From positions 8,128,001-8,192,000 of the forward strand of contig CM000151.3 of assembly GCA_000004695.1 (NCBI GenBank): a stretch of 64,000 nucleotides of DNA. The letters are read 5' to 3'. The stretch's first letter is position 1; every line of letters starts with the position of its first letter. The position numbers were made by a program, and so were the translations under genes. The notes under the pieces are model-generated. The model saw nothing but the letters and a program-made list of their open reading frames with translations, was not told the DNA's origin and did no database searches. Source of the stretch: Dictyostelium discoideum (lineage: Eukaryota). Shown piece by piece: positions 7,906-13,831 of the stretch.

Positions 7906-8498
7906 CCAACTTTCTTTTTAATAAATTATTTAATTTATTAATTACTTAATGTTAATAAAAAAAATATTAATTAATTCTTACTTTTATGGTAATATCGAAT
8001 CTCTAAAATTAAATGGTGAGATTATTTTTTTTTTTTATTTTTATATATATTATTTTTTATTATTTTTATTTTTTTTATTTTTTTTTATTATTTTTTTATT
8101 TTTTTTATTTTTTTTGGAATGAAAAATAAAATTATTAAATTTGAAATTTATAGTTTTTTTTTAGGTTTTTTTTTTATTTATATTAAACTATATAAATTAT
8201 ATTATATTTTTAATAATTTTCTTATTTTATTTTTTAAGATCTCATTTTTTTGAAAAAAAAATACAAAACAAGATTGTGTTTGAAAAAAAAAAAAAAGGCA
8301 CATCTTCCAATTTTTATTCTTAGTAAAAAATAGGTCCAAAAAAAAAAAAAAAAAAAAAAACAAATTAAATAAAACAACACACAAATTAAAAAAAAAATTT
8401 TTATTTTATTTATTTATTTTTTAATTTGTATTTTTTTAATTCATTTTTTTTTTTAATTTATTTTTTATTTATTTAATAACATATAATTTTAAATAAAA

Positions 8499-8957
8499 AT
8501 GACAAGTAAATATTGTTGCCAACATGATGAATTTTCTTTAAGAAAGCTTAAAAAAAGTGAAGATTTCACTCTTTACCTTGATGAATTACTAGATCAAGAT
8601 GAGTTTCTAAAGATTCAGCCTGGTTACTGCACAGAGGAATGTAAACAAAAAATGAAGGAGATTTATAGAATTACATTCGAACGTTATATTGAGACTATAA
8701 ACAAATATTACAGTGACAGCAGAATTTTTGAATATAACTTGGGAAAAAATCCTCGAGGATGTGATATTTGGATGTATCGAGAATTTTTCAGTACTCCACC
8801 CCCTATCTCTCCCCAAGATGAATATGCTAGAATGGTCATAAAAGCAATGAAAGTTGGTATTAAAGATGGAAAGCCTGTTAGATTATGTGAATTGCCACCT
8901 GGTGTACAATGTGATTTTGATGCAAAAAACCTACCTGATTCTGAAGAAGATGAATAG
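8499..8957 (+). CDS. hypothetical 152-aa protein with codon usage atypical for this genome
   Basis: Intact ATG-to-TAG ORF (MTSKYCCQHDEFSLRKLKK...). It uses cag, gag, aag, cga, ccc and ggt codons much more often than neighbouring genes, and local G+C is visibly higher. No recognisable domain. Confidence 0.45.
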   Translation: MTSKYCCQHDEFSLRKLKKSEDFTLYLDELLDQDEFLKIQPGYCTEECKQKMKEIYRITFERYIETINKYYSDSRIFEYNLGKNPRGCDIWMYREFFSTPPPISPQDEYARMVIKAMKVGIKDGKPVRLCELPPGVQCDFDAKNLPDSEEDE

Positions 8958-9149
8958 AAAAATAAGTGTTAATTAAATAAAAAGAACTGTTTTAAATTTT
9001 TTTATTTTATTTTACTTTTATTTTTTTTTATAACTCTTATATAAGAGAAGTAGTTTATTTTTTTTTTAATTTTTAATATTTTTTTTTTATTTCTTTTAAT
9101 TATTTTTTTTTTTCTTTTTTTATTTCTTGCACCTCTTTTAGGTGCAAAG

Positions 9150-9365
9150 TTACCATATATATCGTTGAGCTTCTTGTGCAGTTGCAAAGGTTCTAATTAG
9201 CTCTTGTTTTTCTCTAAGTCTTTGCAATCGTCTTCTTTCACTTTCTTCTTGCATCAACCTTCTTCTTTCTTCTTGTTCAGCCAATCTTTGTTGTGTTTTT
9301 TTAATTTTTATTAATTTTACCGTTTCAGGGTCTGCTTCAATTTCTTTTTTTTGATGGGCACCCAT
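9150..9365 (-). CDS. hypothetical small (71 aa) Glu/Arg/Gln-rich coiled-coil protein
   Basis: ORF MGAHQKKEIEADPETVKLIKIKKTQQRLAEQEERRRLMQEESERRRLQRLREKQELIRTFATAQEAQRYIW, convergent with the 3' end of 8499..8957. No introns evident. Confidence 0.3.
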   Translation of the reverse strand: MGAHQKKEIEADPETVKLIKIKKTQQRLAEQEERRRLMQEESERRRLQRLREKQELIRTFATAQEAQRYIW

Positions 9366-9429
9366 CGTTTTTTTTTAAAAAGTAAACCTAATGATTTATA
9401 CATGTTTATATTTAATAATTGAGAATTTT

Positions 9430-9900
9430 TATTTTATGACATTGGTTTTGAATTATTTTTAAAAAAATCATTTTAAATTTTCTTTGATTCGTTACATTTT
9501 TGTTTCTATCTAATGATCATTTTCCAATGATTTTATATTAATGGTCATTGGAAAATCCTTTAGCTAGGAATTCTATAGAGAATCATTGAGTAAATAATGG
9601 TTTCTATAGGAAATCTTTAAACAACCATTAAAAATCGTTGATTTTTCTTTGGCTCAATTTTTAATAGTTTTCTATGTAATGGTCACATCTATACCGTTAT
9701 CAATCTAAAACCATTGGAAATAACAATATCTAATGATTTTCAATAAAGTTCAATAAAATTATAAAAAAATGAAAATAATGGATTTCATTAAAAGAATTTT
9801 TTTAAAATAAGATTAAAAATTTTATTTAAAGAATTTTTTTATTGATTTCCATAAGGAAACCATTATATGATTTTTTTTTTTTGTTTTTTTTTTTTTTATA
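9430..9900. repeat. cluster of short imperfect inverted/direct repeats built on a CCATTGGAAA / TTTCCAATGG-type core
   Basis: Roughly 8 copies: gatcattttccaatgatttt, aatggtcattggaaaatcc, aatggtttctataggaaatc, aaccattaaaaatcgttgatttttc, aatggtcacatctataccgttatc, aaaccattggaaataacaa, aatggatttcattaaaag, gatttccataaggaaaccatta. Several pairs are reverse complements of each other. The region is noticeably less AT-rich than normal intergenic DNA. Confidence 0.6.
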
Positions 9901-10020
9901 AAAATGAGAAAACTATTGGTACTTTATTATAATTAAAATAAAATAAATATTAATAAATGTAAAACTTTATAAAATAAATATTATTATAATAAAAGTAATA
10001 ATAAGGATAGATTGATTTGA

Positions 10021-10075
10021 TTTCTTGAAATTAATAACGAAATTAATAACGAAATTAATAACGAAATTAATTTGA
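10021..10075. repeat. 12-bp tandem repeat (cgaaattaataa) x3 flanked by the direct repeat tttgatttct
   Basis: gatttgatttcttgaaattaataacgaaattaataacgaaattaataacgaaattaatttgatttct. Confidence 0.7.
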
Positions 10076-11056
10076 TTTCTAAAAAATGTTTATTTTTTTT
10101 TCTATTTTTAGTGTAAAAAAGGGGGAAATAATTTAATTCATCAGTGAGCTGTCATTTTTAGTTTTGAACGTTTTGCATCATCAGATTCCAATGTTTGACT
10201 ATAAATATTTTCTTTACTTTTAATCTCTTGTTTAATTATTCTCTATCACGTTTTGGTTTCATTAGACCCTTGTTATATTCCAATGCCGATGATTCATTAA
10301 TACGGTCAAACTCTTTTTGAAAAGGTGTAGGTGGTACTTTCTTTAATTTTTCGGTGAACAAAACCGATGATGATTTATCACCAGTTATAGTTTTTGAAAG
10401 TTTTTTCCTATCGATTGGCATCTCCAATGTTGAACCTTTTTTTTATAATTTTCTTTTAAATCCATTCAAATTCATTTTTTTAAAAAAAATTATTCAATCA
10501 TTTTTTTAAAAAAAAAAAAATTTAAACATTAATTAAAATTATATTTTAGAAATAAAAAAGAAAAAAATGGAGCTTTTAATTCCATTAAGTTTATTGGGAT
10601 TATATTTATTTTCAGGGACAAGAGATTCAGTTCATAAGGGAGAAGTTAAAGATGACTTGAAAGAGAAACCTATAAAAGTTAATTTTAATTTAACTGACTC
10701 TACAAAAGTTGACCATAAAACTCATCTCAAACAGTACAGTTCATTAAAACCAGGTGACACATTGGAAATATTATAACAAAAACATTTAGATCACTCTACG
10801 AAAGATTTAAAACACCCAGTATCCATTATCAATGATAAGTCTGACAGTAAAATTCATCTTAAACGAACATACCGGAAAAGTTAAAGTTAAATTTATTGAT
10901 CATACAATTCGTAGTGATGTTAGACCAATCTCATTTGGAATTAATAAAAAATAATTTATTTTCTAAAAAAAAAAAAAAAATTCTCTTTATTATTTATTAT
11001 TTATTTTTAAAATTAGTTTTGTTTTTTTAAAAAAAAAAAAAAAAGAAAGAAAAAAA

Positions 11057-12300
11057 ATGGGTATCAGTGATCAAATCAATAGTAATTTATCAAGTCAATC
11101 TCCATTTACTGTAAGTACAAACCCAAGTGATTCAATGTTTCTTCCAACAAACAGAATTGCAAAAACAGCAGATTGGAAAGAGGAGAAAAAATATTACTAT
11201 CCAAAAGAATCGATTCAAAGTATTTATGAAGGTACAACAGTTCGTATCGTAATCGATAAACAAAATGGTAGACTTTATGGTTTGGAAATGGTAGTTGAAA
11301 TTGGACCATTGACTGCAAATGGTGCTACATTTACACGTCTCTGTAGGGATGTTGCTCATTCGATGGCCTATAGTGTTTCAATATGGAATGGTAATAATGA
11401 AATTCATAGACTTCATATGGATCATGAAAGAATTGAGATGGTTTTAACTAAATTAAAACATGAAAGGGACATGGAAGATAAGATGGCCGGTTACTATGAT
11501 GATGCGACACGTACTGCATTGGGTGCAACAAAACAAAAATTAATTTTTGATTTGAATTTCTTTCATACTGTCCACACTTCTGATGCACTCTATTTAAATG
11601 CCTGGCATTGAAATACACTTATCAAATTAAGATCAATCCTTTAAGAAGATGGGTAGAAACCGATGGTACTGATCCAAAAGCTAATGATTTCAAAGTTTAT
11701 CTTCGTGCTGATATTATTCATACACCACAGGATGAATATCGTATAGTTCATAATACTATCAACACTGGTACTGGTATTTTTTCACCAATTGAACATACAG
11801 AGATGAAAGAGCGTGTAGTACTCAACGTTGGTGAATCAAAACATTATGTTCAATTAACAAACATTATTGGTAATGGTCGTTCTTATTTTGTTGTTTTAAG
11901 AAGATTGGCAGACACTGAAAATCCAAAAGCACCAAGATATGATGATTTCATGCCATGGGAAAATATGCGTTTATTACATGCCGGTAATAAGGAAGTTCAT
12001 TTACCACATAATAATATGATGGATTGTTTTAAACATTTAAAGCATCGTTTTCATTTTGATGCATCCTACAATGATGATAAATCTCCAAACAGTATGAATA
12101 TTTATGGCTTCAGTTTTTCAGCTAATCCTATCGATGTCAAAAATCGAACAGGTTGTTTTTCATTCTCACAAGCAAACAATCTTCAATTGGAAGTAACAAC
12201 AAAAACTCTAACTGAACCATGGGTACTCGATTTTTATACAGCATCCACTCAAATCATTCAACAATCTGGTAACACAGCAAAAACAATTCTCCATTATTAA
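11057..12300 (+). CDS. hypothetical ~413-aa protein encoded as two abutting ORFs (11057..11611 and about 11608..12300) related by an apparent -1 frameshift; possibly a pseudogene or mobile-element ORF
   Basis: ORF 1 (184 aa, MGISDQINSNLSSQSPF...ALYLNAWH*) ends at TGA 11609-11611. ORF 2 (230 aa, KYTYQIKINPLRRWVETDG...TILHY*) is open from the same point in the -1 frame and has no ATG of its own (the track's M is a TTG). There is no GT...AG intron of plausible size between them. Codon usage is somewhat less AT-biased than typical genes here. Confidence 0.4.
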
Positions 12301-12440
12301 AAAAAAAAATAAAAAAGTATAAAAATAAAATTTTTTTTTTTTTTTATTTAAAATTGATAAAGAATTTTTTTATTAAAAATTAAGTCTATCGTTTCGTCGT
12401 TATCTTCTTTATCTTCGTTATCGTTGTCGATGGCATTGGT

Positions 12441-13443
12441 CTATAGATTATCTACTGATTTTTTAAAGATTTTTTTCTTTAGTTTTTTCATTTCTTTCTT
12501 TTTAGTTTTTTCCTCCTGAATTAACCACCACCCAGGGCATACTGAATCAGTGGGTAATGAACCCCTCTTTATATCAAAACGAGGCAAATCTTTAAATTGA
12601 TGGTATAGATTCGTATACTCATAAGGAGTGTATCTAAAGATTTCAAATTCTTTAAAAGAACTACCGATAGTAGACTTGTGTTTGGATGATAAAAACAAAT
12701 TTTTAAATTCAAACCATTATCACCTGGCGATAAAACTTCATGAAGTAATAATGTTTCTTTAAATTCCCATAGAAATATGTGATGATTCCTATCATTTTCA
12801 TTACAAACTCTACAATTCATTAGCTCCCGTTTCCTTAGAAGATCGATTAAAACCTTCCAATGTTCATCAATTTTCTCAAGTTTATGATTAAGAAAAAAAG
12901 ATTCCAGAGCAATTTTTATATGATGTAGCCGATTATCAAATCTATAAAGATGTTCTCAAACTTAATACAGTAAAAATTGGAAAGGATTTGGATGGAAAAC
13001 AATGTTTTATTCATGAGTTTGGTTCTTATGGTGACCGTATGGTTGGAGCATTGGTTGGTAGTGATCTCTTGGGTGGTTATAGTACTTTCTTTGGAATAAT
13101 TGTTTCGGTTTTCATAAAGAATAAGGACATTTCATTAAAATAATTCCTTCCATTGGTTAAAATCGATAGAGATTATACTGTTCCTGAAATGTTTGTTCTT
13201 TACAAAGAACTTAGATCAACTGGTCAATTTGCAAAATCACCAAATCTTTACAAATTTTATTGTTCATTACTTTGGCTCTTGGTAAATATTCATGAACAAC
13301 TTAGTGACGATGGTAAAAATGGTTTCGAATCTCAAGCGATCAACTTACCTCTTTGCAATTATATATTGGTGAATCTAAACACAGCGATTCCTTCGAAATT
13401 CTTTATTTTTTTTTTTTTTTTAATAACATCGCTCAATTTATAA
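12441..13443. pseudogene. degenerate, frameshifted ORF fragments on both strands immediately upstream of the tRNA gene; candidate mobile-element or foreign-gene remnants
   Basis: Minus-strand ORFs 12569..12820 and 12441..12698 overlap in different frames, so no intron can join them. Plus-strand fragments sit at about 12896..13140 (KKIPEQFLYDVADYQIYKDVLKLNTVKIGKDLDGKQCFIHEFGSYGDRMVGALVGSDLLGGYSTFFGIIVSVFIKNKDISLK*) and 13153..13443. Several stops and frameshifts separate the pieces, and CG-containing codons are present. Confidence 0.3.
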
Positions 13444-13486
13444 AATTCTTTATTATGTTTGGTTAAAATTGAAAAAAATTATCAAA

Positions 13487-13559
13487 GGGGATGTAGCTCA
13501 GATGGTAGAGCGCTCGCTTAGCATGCGAGAGGTAAAGGGATCGATACCCTTCTTCTCCA
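13487..13559 (+). tRNA. tRNA-Ala (anticodon AGC)
   Basis: GGGGATGTAGCTCAGATGGTAGAGCGCTCGCTTAGCATGCGAGAGGTAAAGGGATCGATACCCTTCTTCTCCA. This is a canonical eukaryotic tRNA-Ala(AGC) 5' two-thirds: A box TAGCTCAGATGG, anticodon loop CTTAGCATG, and G3:U70. The T stem is AAGGG/CCCTT, with compensatory changes relative to the common CGGGG/CCCCG. There is one acceptor mismatch (T6:T67). A T6 Pol III terminator follows directly. Confidence 0.8.
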
Positions 13560-13566
13560 TTTTTTG
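13560..13566 (+). terminator. RNA polymerase III terminator (T-run) immediately 3' of tRNA-Ala
   Basis: tttttt directly after the discriminator base. Confidence 0.7.
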
Positions 13567-13585
13567 GGCCGACGATATGAGATCG

Positions 13586-13599
13586 CAGGTTCGATTCCT
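13586..13599 (+). promoter_or_regulatory. extra (external) B box downstream of the tRNA gene
   Basis: caGGTTCGATTCCt lies about 27 nt after the tRNA 3' end. It duplicates the B-box consensus GGTTCGANTCC. External B boxes are a known feature of many D. discoideum tRNA genes. Confidence 0.6.
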
Positions 13600-13831
13600 A
13601 ATTTTATTATCAACAAATTTGAAATGTTTATAAATTTAACTTTACTCGAAAAGAGTTCAATTCAAACTTTAATAATATATGATTTGTAATAATAGTATAT
13701 TTAAATTATCTACTAAAAATTTCAATTTTTATTCATTAAAGACTATTTTAGTACCAATTAATAATATTACTTTTATTAGTTCATTAGATCAAGCATTTTA
13801 TAAATTTCAAAAATAAATAAAAAATAATAAT

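Follow-up and report, generated by a model that had tools for sequence, protein, structure and literature searches.

The question raised by this locus is where a run of broken open reading frames (ORFs), packed upstream of a tRNA-Ala(AGC) gene on chromosome 2 of Dictyostelium discoideum AX4, came from. The window analysed here is the whole 64-kb stretch of contig CM000151.3 from position 8,128,001 to 8,192,000, and the protein of the AX4 gene model DDB_G0277467 is 100% identical to it. A first-pass annotation placed the broken ORFs at 8400-13480 of the window and proposed an acquired, decayed foreign insert next to the tRNA gene, for which a graveyard of TRE5, TRE3 and DGLT-A retroelements was the preferred reading. 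The run of broken ORFs is real and homology places it at 8398-13397; the general idea of a decayed insert is likewise borne out, whereas the retroelement reading is unsupported, as every sizeable piece matches genes of virus-like elements. With a probability of roughly 0.85, what survives at window 8398-13397 is the dead remnant of an endogenous Nucleocytoviricota DNA virus, most like the small mriyaviruses, the relatives of Yaravirus. The viral origin of its genes, the fold of its capsid protein, its lesions, its collinearity with fuller elements and its confinement to 8398-13397 are observed directly, as is the gene order common to the remnant, the fuller elements and a published contig of the yaravirus group.

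The main piece of evidence is a pseudogene for a major capsid protein (MCP) of the double jelly-roll, Nucleocytoviricota type, found at 11057-12300 on the plus strand and identified by homology, profile and fold. It appears in the window as two ORFs (11057-11611 and 11608-12300, of 184 and 230 amino acids) which, as already noted in the first-pass annotation, adjoin in different frames. The two are one gene, and alignment to an intact 414-residue copy attributes the split to a deletion of one nucleotide at about 11603. The intact copy (P0001) is encoded in Dictyostelium cf. discoideum and is 95% identical to the repaired AX4 ORF. A protein search also returned an internally shortened gene model of D. 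dimigraforme and the AX4 model DDB_G0277467, and exhaustive searching with phmmer gave 40 relatives, mostly of about 385-440 residues. On the Pfam family Capsid_N, a single AX4-type sequence is sub-threshold (E 9e-5; 22.5-23.6 bits versus a cut-off of 24); among the 34 relatives from which a family profile was built, Capsid_N is matched by 18 and Capsid_NCLDV by four. Compared with the PDB, the family profile matches solved capsid proteins of the nucleocytoplasmic large DNA viruses (NCLDVs) at E-values from 4.7e-26 to 3.6e-5. These include the MCP of Emiliania huxleyi virus 201 (EhV-201; 4.7e-26), MCPv1-5 of Paramecium bursaria chlorella virus 1 (PBCV-1; 6e-23 for MCPv1 and 2e-14 for MCPv3), PBCV-1 Vp54 (2e-9), and the capsid proteins of faustovirus (6e-6) and African swine fever virus (ASFV; p72, 3e-5). 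An AlphaFold2 model of the protein (pLDDT 83, pTM 0.84) is matched by Foldseek to the MCPs of PBCV-1, EhV-201, Singapore grouper iridovirus (SGIV), faustovirus and ASFV (E 1e-15 to 1e-22, TMq 0.63-0.75) and, in BFVD, to NCLDV MCPs at an E-value of about 1e-24, with TM scores of 0.72-0.80 for the matches at 1e-22 to 1e-24; virophage and tectivirus-like capsids appear only far down the list. Owing to the intact copy, the relatives, the profile matches to the PDB and the fold match, the capsid identity of the 414-residue protein is secure, and an aside of the first-pass annotation, that the 413-residue two-ORF protein could be a capsid, was correct. Other searches returned little: a word-index homologue search with the MCP alignment, which is insensitive for this family, gave only five proteins, and the single relatives P0020 and P0023 found nothing in IMG/VR but one spurious match of 27 residues. 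A blastn search of 10500-13480 against a phage collection, which is not pertinent to eukaryotic viruses, gave no match.

The capsid gene is accompanied by other genes of the same origin. Fuller, multi-copy elements are present in D. cf. discoideum, D. dimigraforme and Acytostelium subglobosum, and the loci compared here include two near the end of a 2.14-Mb D. cf. discoideum contig (L001 and L002), each with an intact capsid gene, which is thus present there at least twice, a third, partial copy (L003), a locus on a 58-kb contig (L004) and one from A. subglobosum (L010). Blastn aligns window 10130-12879 with L001 9066-11824 at 96% identity and window 12874-13381 with L002 13357-13865 at 97%; in all, homology to related elements covers 8398-13397 and ends about 90 bp 5' of the tRNA gene. 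A tblastn search of all element ORFs against the whole window gave matches only within 8499-13397. From left to right, the pieces are a 152-residue ORF, a coiled-coil ORF, the start of a large protein, a 129-residue ORF, the MCP, the tail of a VLTF3-like protein and a piece of a 366-residue protein. Nonsense codons or frameshifts are found in four of these, the MCP has only its single-base deletion, the coiled-coil ORF of 71 residues is altered C-terminally and the 152-residue ORF is intact. The dN/dS of the MCP between AX4 and D. cf. discoideum (L001) is 0.37 (dS 0.053), as would be expected if constraint was relaxed once the gene had been inactivated. For the D. cf. discoideum copy compared with that of D. 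dimigraforme it is 0.04 (dS 0.30); the MCP was therefore strongly constrained while these two diverged, as for a replicating virus or a selected gene.

The second hallmark gene within the window is that of the VLTF3-like late transcription factor, of which a C-terminal fragment (residues ~293-470 of 470) remains at 12351-12883 on the minus strand, 87-93% identical by tblastn to L002 11294-12706. Its frame shifts near 12690, a nonsense codon occupies 12441-12443, and its N-terminal 292 residues are gone in a deletion of ~1.5 kb at ~12879. The intact 470-residue protein matches Pfam Pox_VLTF3 at 25.0 bits, which equals the cut-off (E 1.7e-5).

Mriyaviruses are small (35-45 kb) relatives of the giant viruses, and the class Mriyaviricetes comprises Yaravirus brasiliensis, the Pleurochrysis endemic viruses and ~200 metagenomic genomes (Yutin et al. 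2024; PMC11253617). The genes that these viruses have in common encode MCP, ATPase, VLTF2, VLTF3, RuvC, PDDEXK, helicase and HUH endonuclease, while polymerases are absent; VLTF3 has not been found outside Nucleocytoviricota (PMC11253617). One of the MCP relatives of the dictyostelid elements (P0023) is encoded on JGI contig Ga0373638_0002274, of 35,694 nt, which Yutin et al. (2024; PMC11253617) place under 'Yaraviruses' in their Table S1. The phmmer match to this MCP has an E-value of 1.7e-7 against the whole library and 1e-14 locally. Over the 20 kb of the contig that were compared, five genes are common to it and the dictyostelid elements: MCP (1e-14), ATPase (2e-16), VLTF3 (2.6e-11), the large protein (2e-26) and a RuvC-like protein (1e-5). 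The window and the contig also have in common the adjacency of MCP on the plus strand and VLTF3 on the minus strand. The contig protein encoded at the VLTF3 position, right after the MCP, has as its sole precomputed Pfam match a faint one to Pox_VLTF3. Further MCP relatives come from contigs of 34-39 kb. For the Yaravirus HUH endonuclease, the top BLAST match is the A. subglobosum protein XP_012747655.1 (PMC11253617 supplement; original Yaravirus preprint), the accession of which is 11 numbers apart from that of the A. subglobosum MCP fragment, XP_012747666.1. Endogenous elements of dictyostelids are not mentioned in the main text of either source.

The gene content of the related loci extends this likeness. 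An A32 packaging ATPase scores 30.6 bits on Pfam in L003 after repair of a frameshift and 39.1 bits in A. subglobosum (cut-off 22.8), and is absent from the 64-kb window by tblastn of the element ORFs. A deoxynucleoside kinase (dNK) is found at 44 bits in related loci. The A. subglobosum contig encodes a YqaJ nuclease of the PDDEXK type (85 bits), fused to a weak AEP-like domain and not seen in the D. discoideum-group loci examined. A candidate HUH endonuclease of ~180 residues (L003, L004) contains motifs I-III in order (hLTINT, GGRxHxH and YIxK), conserved in four sequences, and has homologues on two virus contigs; it has no Pfam match, and an HUH profile gave no meaningful match in the PDB. 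ORFs of 190 residues (L003/L011), read as possible RuvC-like resolvases, weakly match a 190-residue ORF of Ga0373638_0002274 (E 1e-5 and 4e-4) and have no Pfam match. One element ORF has a faint PriCT_1 match. Precomputed Pfam matches flagged no DNA or RNA polymerase, D5 helicase or other core gene of large viruses in ~125 kb of element loci. The dictyostelid elements resemble Mriyaviricetes in an NCLDV-type double jelly-roll MCP of ~400 residues, in a VLTF3 gene that adjoins it on the opposite strand and, in the related loci, in the ATPase, the nuclease, a large protein with one conserved domain of ~100 residues and the candidate HUH and RuvC-like proteins. In keeping with that class, no polymerase genes were seen. 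The elements differ from it in that their genes are chromosomal and decayed and that the host is a dictyostelid, the known hosts being Acanthamoeba and a haptophyte. Nor did the analysis, in which no dedicated profiles were searched, recognise VLTF2, Mriya_48/50/51 or an SF3/SF2 helicase.

Decay and divergence are not confined to AX4. Even the D. cf. discoideum copies contain broken genes, namely the ATPase in L003 and VLTF3 in L001, while two element copies in this organism are 99.6% identical over 6.2 kb, which points to recent duplication or reinsertion. At least two divergent element lineages occur within a single D. cf. discoideum genome, the MCP of L004 being 31% identical. In A. subglobosum, the MCP ORF is full length (416 residues) despite its annotation as a 228-residue fragment (XP_012747666.1), and the protein is 49% identical to the MCP of L004 and 37% to that of L001.

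Several considerations weigh against the assignment to a mriyavirus-like virus. The hallmark genes inside the window are MCP and VLTF3 only; the ATPase, HUH, RuvC-like and YqaJ genes are known only from related loci of other species or strains. The mriyavirus assignment derives from pairwise similarity, gene content and gene order, and the elements may lie either inside or beside Mriyaviricetes. The HUH and RuvC assignments depend on motifs and weak similarity, neither Pfam nor the PDB having given a match, and both proteins are best termed candidates. In D. cf. discoideum the copies form a mosaic in which duplication, decay and retrotransposon insertions are all seen, and neither the ends nor the size of the element are defined, which makes a larger parent virus conceivable. 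Finally, the left block of the remnant (8398-9917) is far more diverged than the right and might have a partly separate history because of this divergence and the solitary copies of its 152-residue ORF that occur elsewhere.

Were the parent virus larger, the remnant might come from an endogenized giant virus (GEVE) of at least 100 kb instead of a mriyavirus-type genome of 35-45 kb. At the D. cf. discoideum contig end, virus-like genes span at least 76 kb, with duplications; dNK and other accessory genes are present, and the best solved-structure matches of the MCP profile are phycodnavirus MCPs. That span, however, looks like several mosaic copies and retrotransposons and not a single genome, and the ~125 kb of loci lack any flagged polymerase or other core gene. 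One MCP relative, moreover, is on a published yaravirus-group genome with synteny in common, and the contigs of all 22 MCP relatives checked, out of 37, are at most 39 kb, although these are mostly fragments of 1-12 kb and constitute weak evidence. A large parent is thus unlikely. Less likely still, by a clear step, is a Polinton/Maverick, a polinton-like virus or a virophage. Small capsid-encoding elements that have integrated into protist genomes usually belong to these groups, Polintons have been reported in other dictyostelids (PMC3671162) and virophage and tectivirus-like capsids do figure among the lower-ranked fold matches. The MCP, however, matches NCLDV MCP profiles directly, and the remnant includes VLTF3, a gene restricted to Nucleocytoviricota in the survey cited above (PMC11253617). 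The loci showed no protein-primed polymerase, primase-helicase, maturation protease or integrase of the retroviral type, and their sole Phage_integrase match belongs to a DIRS-like retroelement.

Two further explanations are very improbable. Nested, decayed copies of tRNA-targeted retroelements (TRE5, TRE3, DGLT-A, Skipper or DIRS) would account for the position of the remnant, since decayed foreign DNA upstream of a tRNA gene is what TRE5, TRE3 and DGLT-A leave; a solitary unit of the 152-residue ORF also lies 175 bp upstream of a tRNA-His gene in another strain, and retroelements do occur inside related viral arrays. Yet none of the ORFs in the region has a Pfam match to a reverse transcriptase, RNase H, endonuclease or integrase, in agreement with the failure of the first-pass annotation to find reverse transcriptase, endonuclease or integrase motifs by eye, and the long terminal repeat (LTR) element ORFs of L001 and the DIRS-like ORFs of L011 have no tblastn match in the window. 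Capsid, VLTF3 and other viral-element genes account instead for each sizeable piece of 8398-13397. TRE5 inserts ~48 bp upstream of tRNA genes and DGLT-A within ~30 bp. The homology stops at 13381-13397, that is, 90-106 bp upstream of the tRNA and not 45-75 bp as first claimed, a spacing unfit for these insertion distances. A T-run near the tRNA that had been cited in favour of the retroelement picture (13404-13424) is ordinary, as the window contains 97 T-runs and 82 A-runs of at least 14 bases. The other explanation, that these are odd-looking host genes and DDB_G0277467 a real spliced gene, can draw on the presence of that model in the AX4 annotation and on the 152-residue ORF, which is intact and under purifying selection. 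Against it, the model links the capsid C-terminus to fragments of an unrelated gene via invented introns, and stops or frameshifts are reported in all genes but the 152-residue ORF. Orthologues in other dictyostelids had been named as what would refute a foreign insert; homologues do exist, but they are patchy, multi-copy viral elements in non-syntenic positions, and the AX4 flanks have no synteny with the D. cf. discoideum and D. dimigraforme loci fetched.

If the remnant is that of a mriyavirus-like virus, integration would have come first and decay after, a direction of events that is read from the sequence. All or part of a virus genome would have become integrated into a nuclear chromosome in the D. 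discoideum lineage, and the integrated copy would then have been passed on vertically and have decayed. Most of its genes would have been lost through internal deletions, one of ~5.6 kb and one of ~1.5 kb, and through truncation of the right end. The route of integration can only be guessed at: it may have been non-homologous insertion or an event mediated by the HUH endonuclease, and no viral integrase was seen in the element loci. The present-day fragment is presumably inert with the possible exception of the intact 152-residue ORF, the sole candidate for a retained function.

Host-pathogen biology has a major model organism in D. discoideum, and to our knowledge no virus has been isolated from wild dictyostelids; in one paper, Dictyostelium is called only a 'potential' giant-virus host. 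Endogenous Nucleocytoviricota elements are already known and include dwarf, mriyavirus-type forms in algal genomes (preprint 10.64898/2026.06.19.733378); none were found reported for dictyostelids, and literature on Dictyostelium together with MCP, VLTF3, Nucleocytoviricota, Mriyaviricetes or DDB_G0277467 yielded no report of this element. The dictyostelid remnants resemble the endogenous NCLDV-like dwarf viruses (NDDVs) of algal genomes and the GEVEs of green algae and Acanthamoeba in that Nucleocytoviricota-type genes are fixed in a nuclear genome, often in multiple copies, and are decaying. They differ in their host supergroup, Amoebozoa (Dictyostelia), and in that the AX4 copy is just a 5-kb relic. 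Together, the AX4 capsid relic and the fuller elements of three other dictyostelids mean that a Nucleocytoviricota-related lineage has infected dictyostelids. This widens the known host range of mriyavirus-like viruses, the only isolate of which infects Acanthamoeba, and adds Amoebozoa to the hosts with endogenous copies, which is of note given that integration genes are reported to be absent from mriyaviruses (preprint 10.64898/2026.06.19.733378). The MCP, ATPase and VLTF3 sequences provide concrete probes for active viruses in wild isolates. More tentatively, dictyostelids might be natural hosts of a mriyavirus-like lineage that endogenizes repeatedly, with some copies perhaps recent, reactivatable proviruses or kept for antiviral defence, as has been proposed for endogenous virophages and polinton-like viruses. 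The MCP dN/dS of 0.04 and the 99.6% identity over 6.2 kb are the reasons for entertaining this possibility, which is nonetheless doubtful. If it were true, the AX4 relic and its intact 152-residue ORF would be the trace, in the laboratory strain AX4, of an endogenizing dictyostelid virus lineage, and wild relatives of D. discoideum would still carry multi-copy elements with intact capsid genes under purifying selection.

The remaining pieces of the remnant flank the capsid and VLTF3-like genes. An internal fragment (residues ~85-259) of a conserved 366-residue element protein, to which no function is assigned, lies at 12874-13397 on the plus strand. It is 95% identical by tblastn to L002 13105-14205, 34% to L004 and 30% to a 408-residue A. 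subglobosum protein; both of its ends are missing, and what is left is interrupted by stops at 12889 and 13141 and shifts frame near 13320. The fragments on both strands with frameshifts described in the first-pass annotation thus recur at 12351-13397, with in-frame stops as well. To the left of the capsid gene, a disabled gene of 129 residues (10567-10939, plus strand), the directly 5' neighbour of the capsid gene in every element, is 98% identical over 98 residues by tblastn and then continues in a second frame; its lesions are a nonsense codon (10774-10776) and, near 10860, a frameshift. Beyond it, at 10131-10475 on the minus strand, are the N-terminal ~118 codons of a large protein of 773 residues, truncated and with several stops, which by tblastn are 70-72% identical to L001, L002 and L003 and 51% to L004. 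The gene of the large protein adjoins the capsid gene in all elements, and the N-domain of the intact protein matches proteins of virus contigs at E-values of 2e-22 to 2e-26. A deletion scar follows at 9918-10130, where by blastn coordinates ~5.6 kb of an L001-type element (L001 3480-9065) are missing; this segment would hold four small genes and most of the 773-residue gene. Right at this scar, a perfect 12-bp tandem repeat, GAAATTAATAAC, occurs in ~4 copies (10027-10071).

The left block (8398-9917) is collinear by blastn with L001 1862-3479 at 76-84% nucleotide identity. It may derive from a different element variant because it is more diverged than the right block (96%). Its principal gene, the intact 152-residue ORF (8499-8957, plus strand), has no Pfam match or known domain and is 82% identical by tblastn to L001 1951-2406, with paralogues in L002; it belongs to a small family with several paralogues within viral elements. 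Compared with the diverged L001 copy, its dN/dS is 0.16. Solitary units of ~770 bp, which consist of this ORF and its immediate flanks, are found elsewhere (L015 10801-11507 and L016 9854-10569; window counterpart 8340-9106). The unit near tRNA-His is in a second D. cf. discoideum assembly and is 96% identical. Another, at DDB_G0288733 on a D. discoideum chromosome of 5.29 Mb, is frameshifted and 80% identical at the nucleotide level, with no tRNA gene within 10 kb. The exact AX4 152-residue protein was not among the protein-search results and may be unannotated. A 71-residue ORF at 9150-9365 on the minus strand is 91% identical over 70 residues by tblastn to a 101-residue coiled-coil ORF (L001 2530-2835), from which it departs at its altered C-terminus; it has no internal stop and, on Pfam, a weak sub-threshold coiled-coil match only. 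An AT-rich, non-coding stretch at 9430-9900 is partly kept in L001 3110-3479 (76%). The cluster of inverted repeats claimed for it is present as many short pairs (12-31 nt, 71-100% complementary), none of them long or perfect. The motifs AACCATT/AATGGTT and TCTATAG, in both orientations, show a modest local enrichment, which amounts to 20-40-fold but in small counts (3-4 copies). This stretch could be a viral promoter or origin region, or a product of chance in AT-rich DNA.

Composition distinguishes the remnant less than was first thought. The 152-residue ORF had been described as intact, which it is, and as heavy in G/C-ending codons; its G+C content at third codon positions of 0.22 is only a slight excess, as other remnant pieces have 0.19-0.28 and the window's ordinary long ORFs 0.07-0.21, with values of 0.19-0.34 in three ORFs that are repetitive and of low complexity. 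Local G+C is indeed higher, at 0.27 versus a window mean of 0.21, but this contrast was overstated, given the 0.32-0.34 of host coding kilobases.

The AX4 gene model DDB_G0277467 (P0003; 314 residues, window 11800-13640) comprises capsid residues ~250-407, a short out-of-frame stretch and two pieces of the 366-residue gene, followed by ~24 final residues that match nothing in the viral genes. Its introns look to have been invented by the gene predictor, and the model, which the analysis of the remnant corrects, should be regarded as a chimeric artefact.

The tRNA-Ala(AGC) gene itself (13487-13559, plus strand; ARAGORN; Rfam 58 bits) is the only RNA gene in the region and a host gene that flanks the remnant without being part of it. 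The possibility that it belonged to the virus was rejected, as no tRNA gene occurs in six related element loci (L001-L004, L010 and L011) or in the one virus contig scanned (L013). At 13588-13598, ~30 bp downstream of the tRNA terminator, GGTTCGATTCC resembles the external B box usual for Dictyostelium tRNA genes. That the remnant lies close to the tRNA gene is more readily explained by survival in a spot poor in genes and tolerant of insertions than by targeting, although a tRNA gene is nearby in two of three cases (the AX4 remnant and the tRNA-His solitary unit, but not DDB_G0288733).

Some further features concern the fuller elements alone. Mobile elements are inserted within the viral arrays, or alongside them, in D. 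cf. discoideum and D. dimigraforme (L001 15400-20500, L011 17438-21116 and L003 1-1230), and the inserted types are an LTR element with RVT_1, RNase H and integrase (L001), a DIRS-like element with RVT_1 and Phage_integrase (L011) and a DDE_Tnp_4 transposase. The Phage_integrase gene of L004 was considered as a viral integrase and rejected, the surrounding DNA being homologous to a DIRS-like retroelement with RVT_1 and Phage_integrase. At L003 10001-11277, a predicted protein of 390 residues (P0004) fuses the first ~50 capsid residues to an unrelated acidic coiled-coil sequence; this partial third copy is rearranged within its capsid gene. Lastly, L002 18603-19994 and L003 17951-19360 encode repeated proteins of 463-469 residues with no Pfam match, in which a repetitive, β-rich N-terminal half ('D-T-x-G-I/V-x-F') precedes a conserved C-terminal domain, and which are possible fibre or penton-associated proteins of the element.

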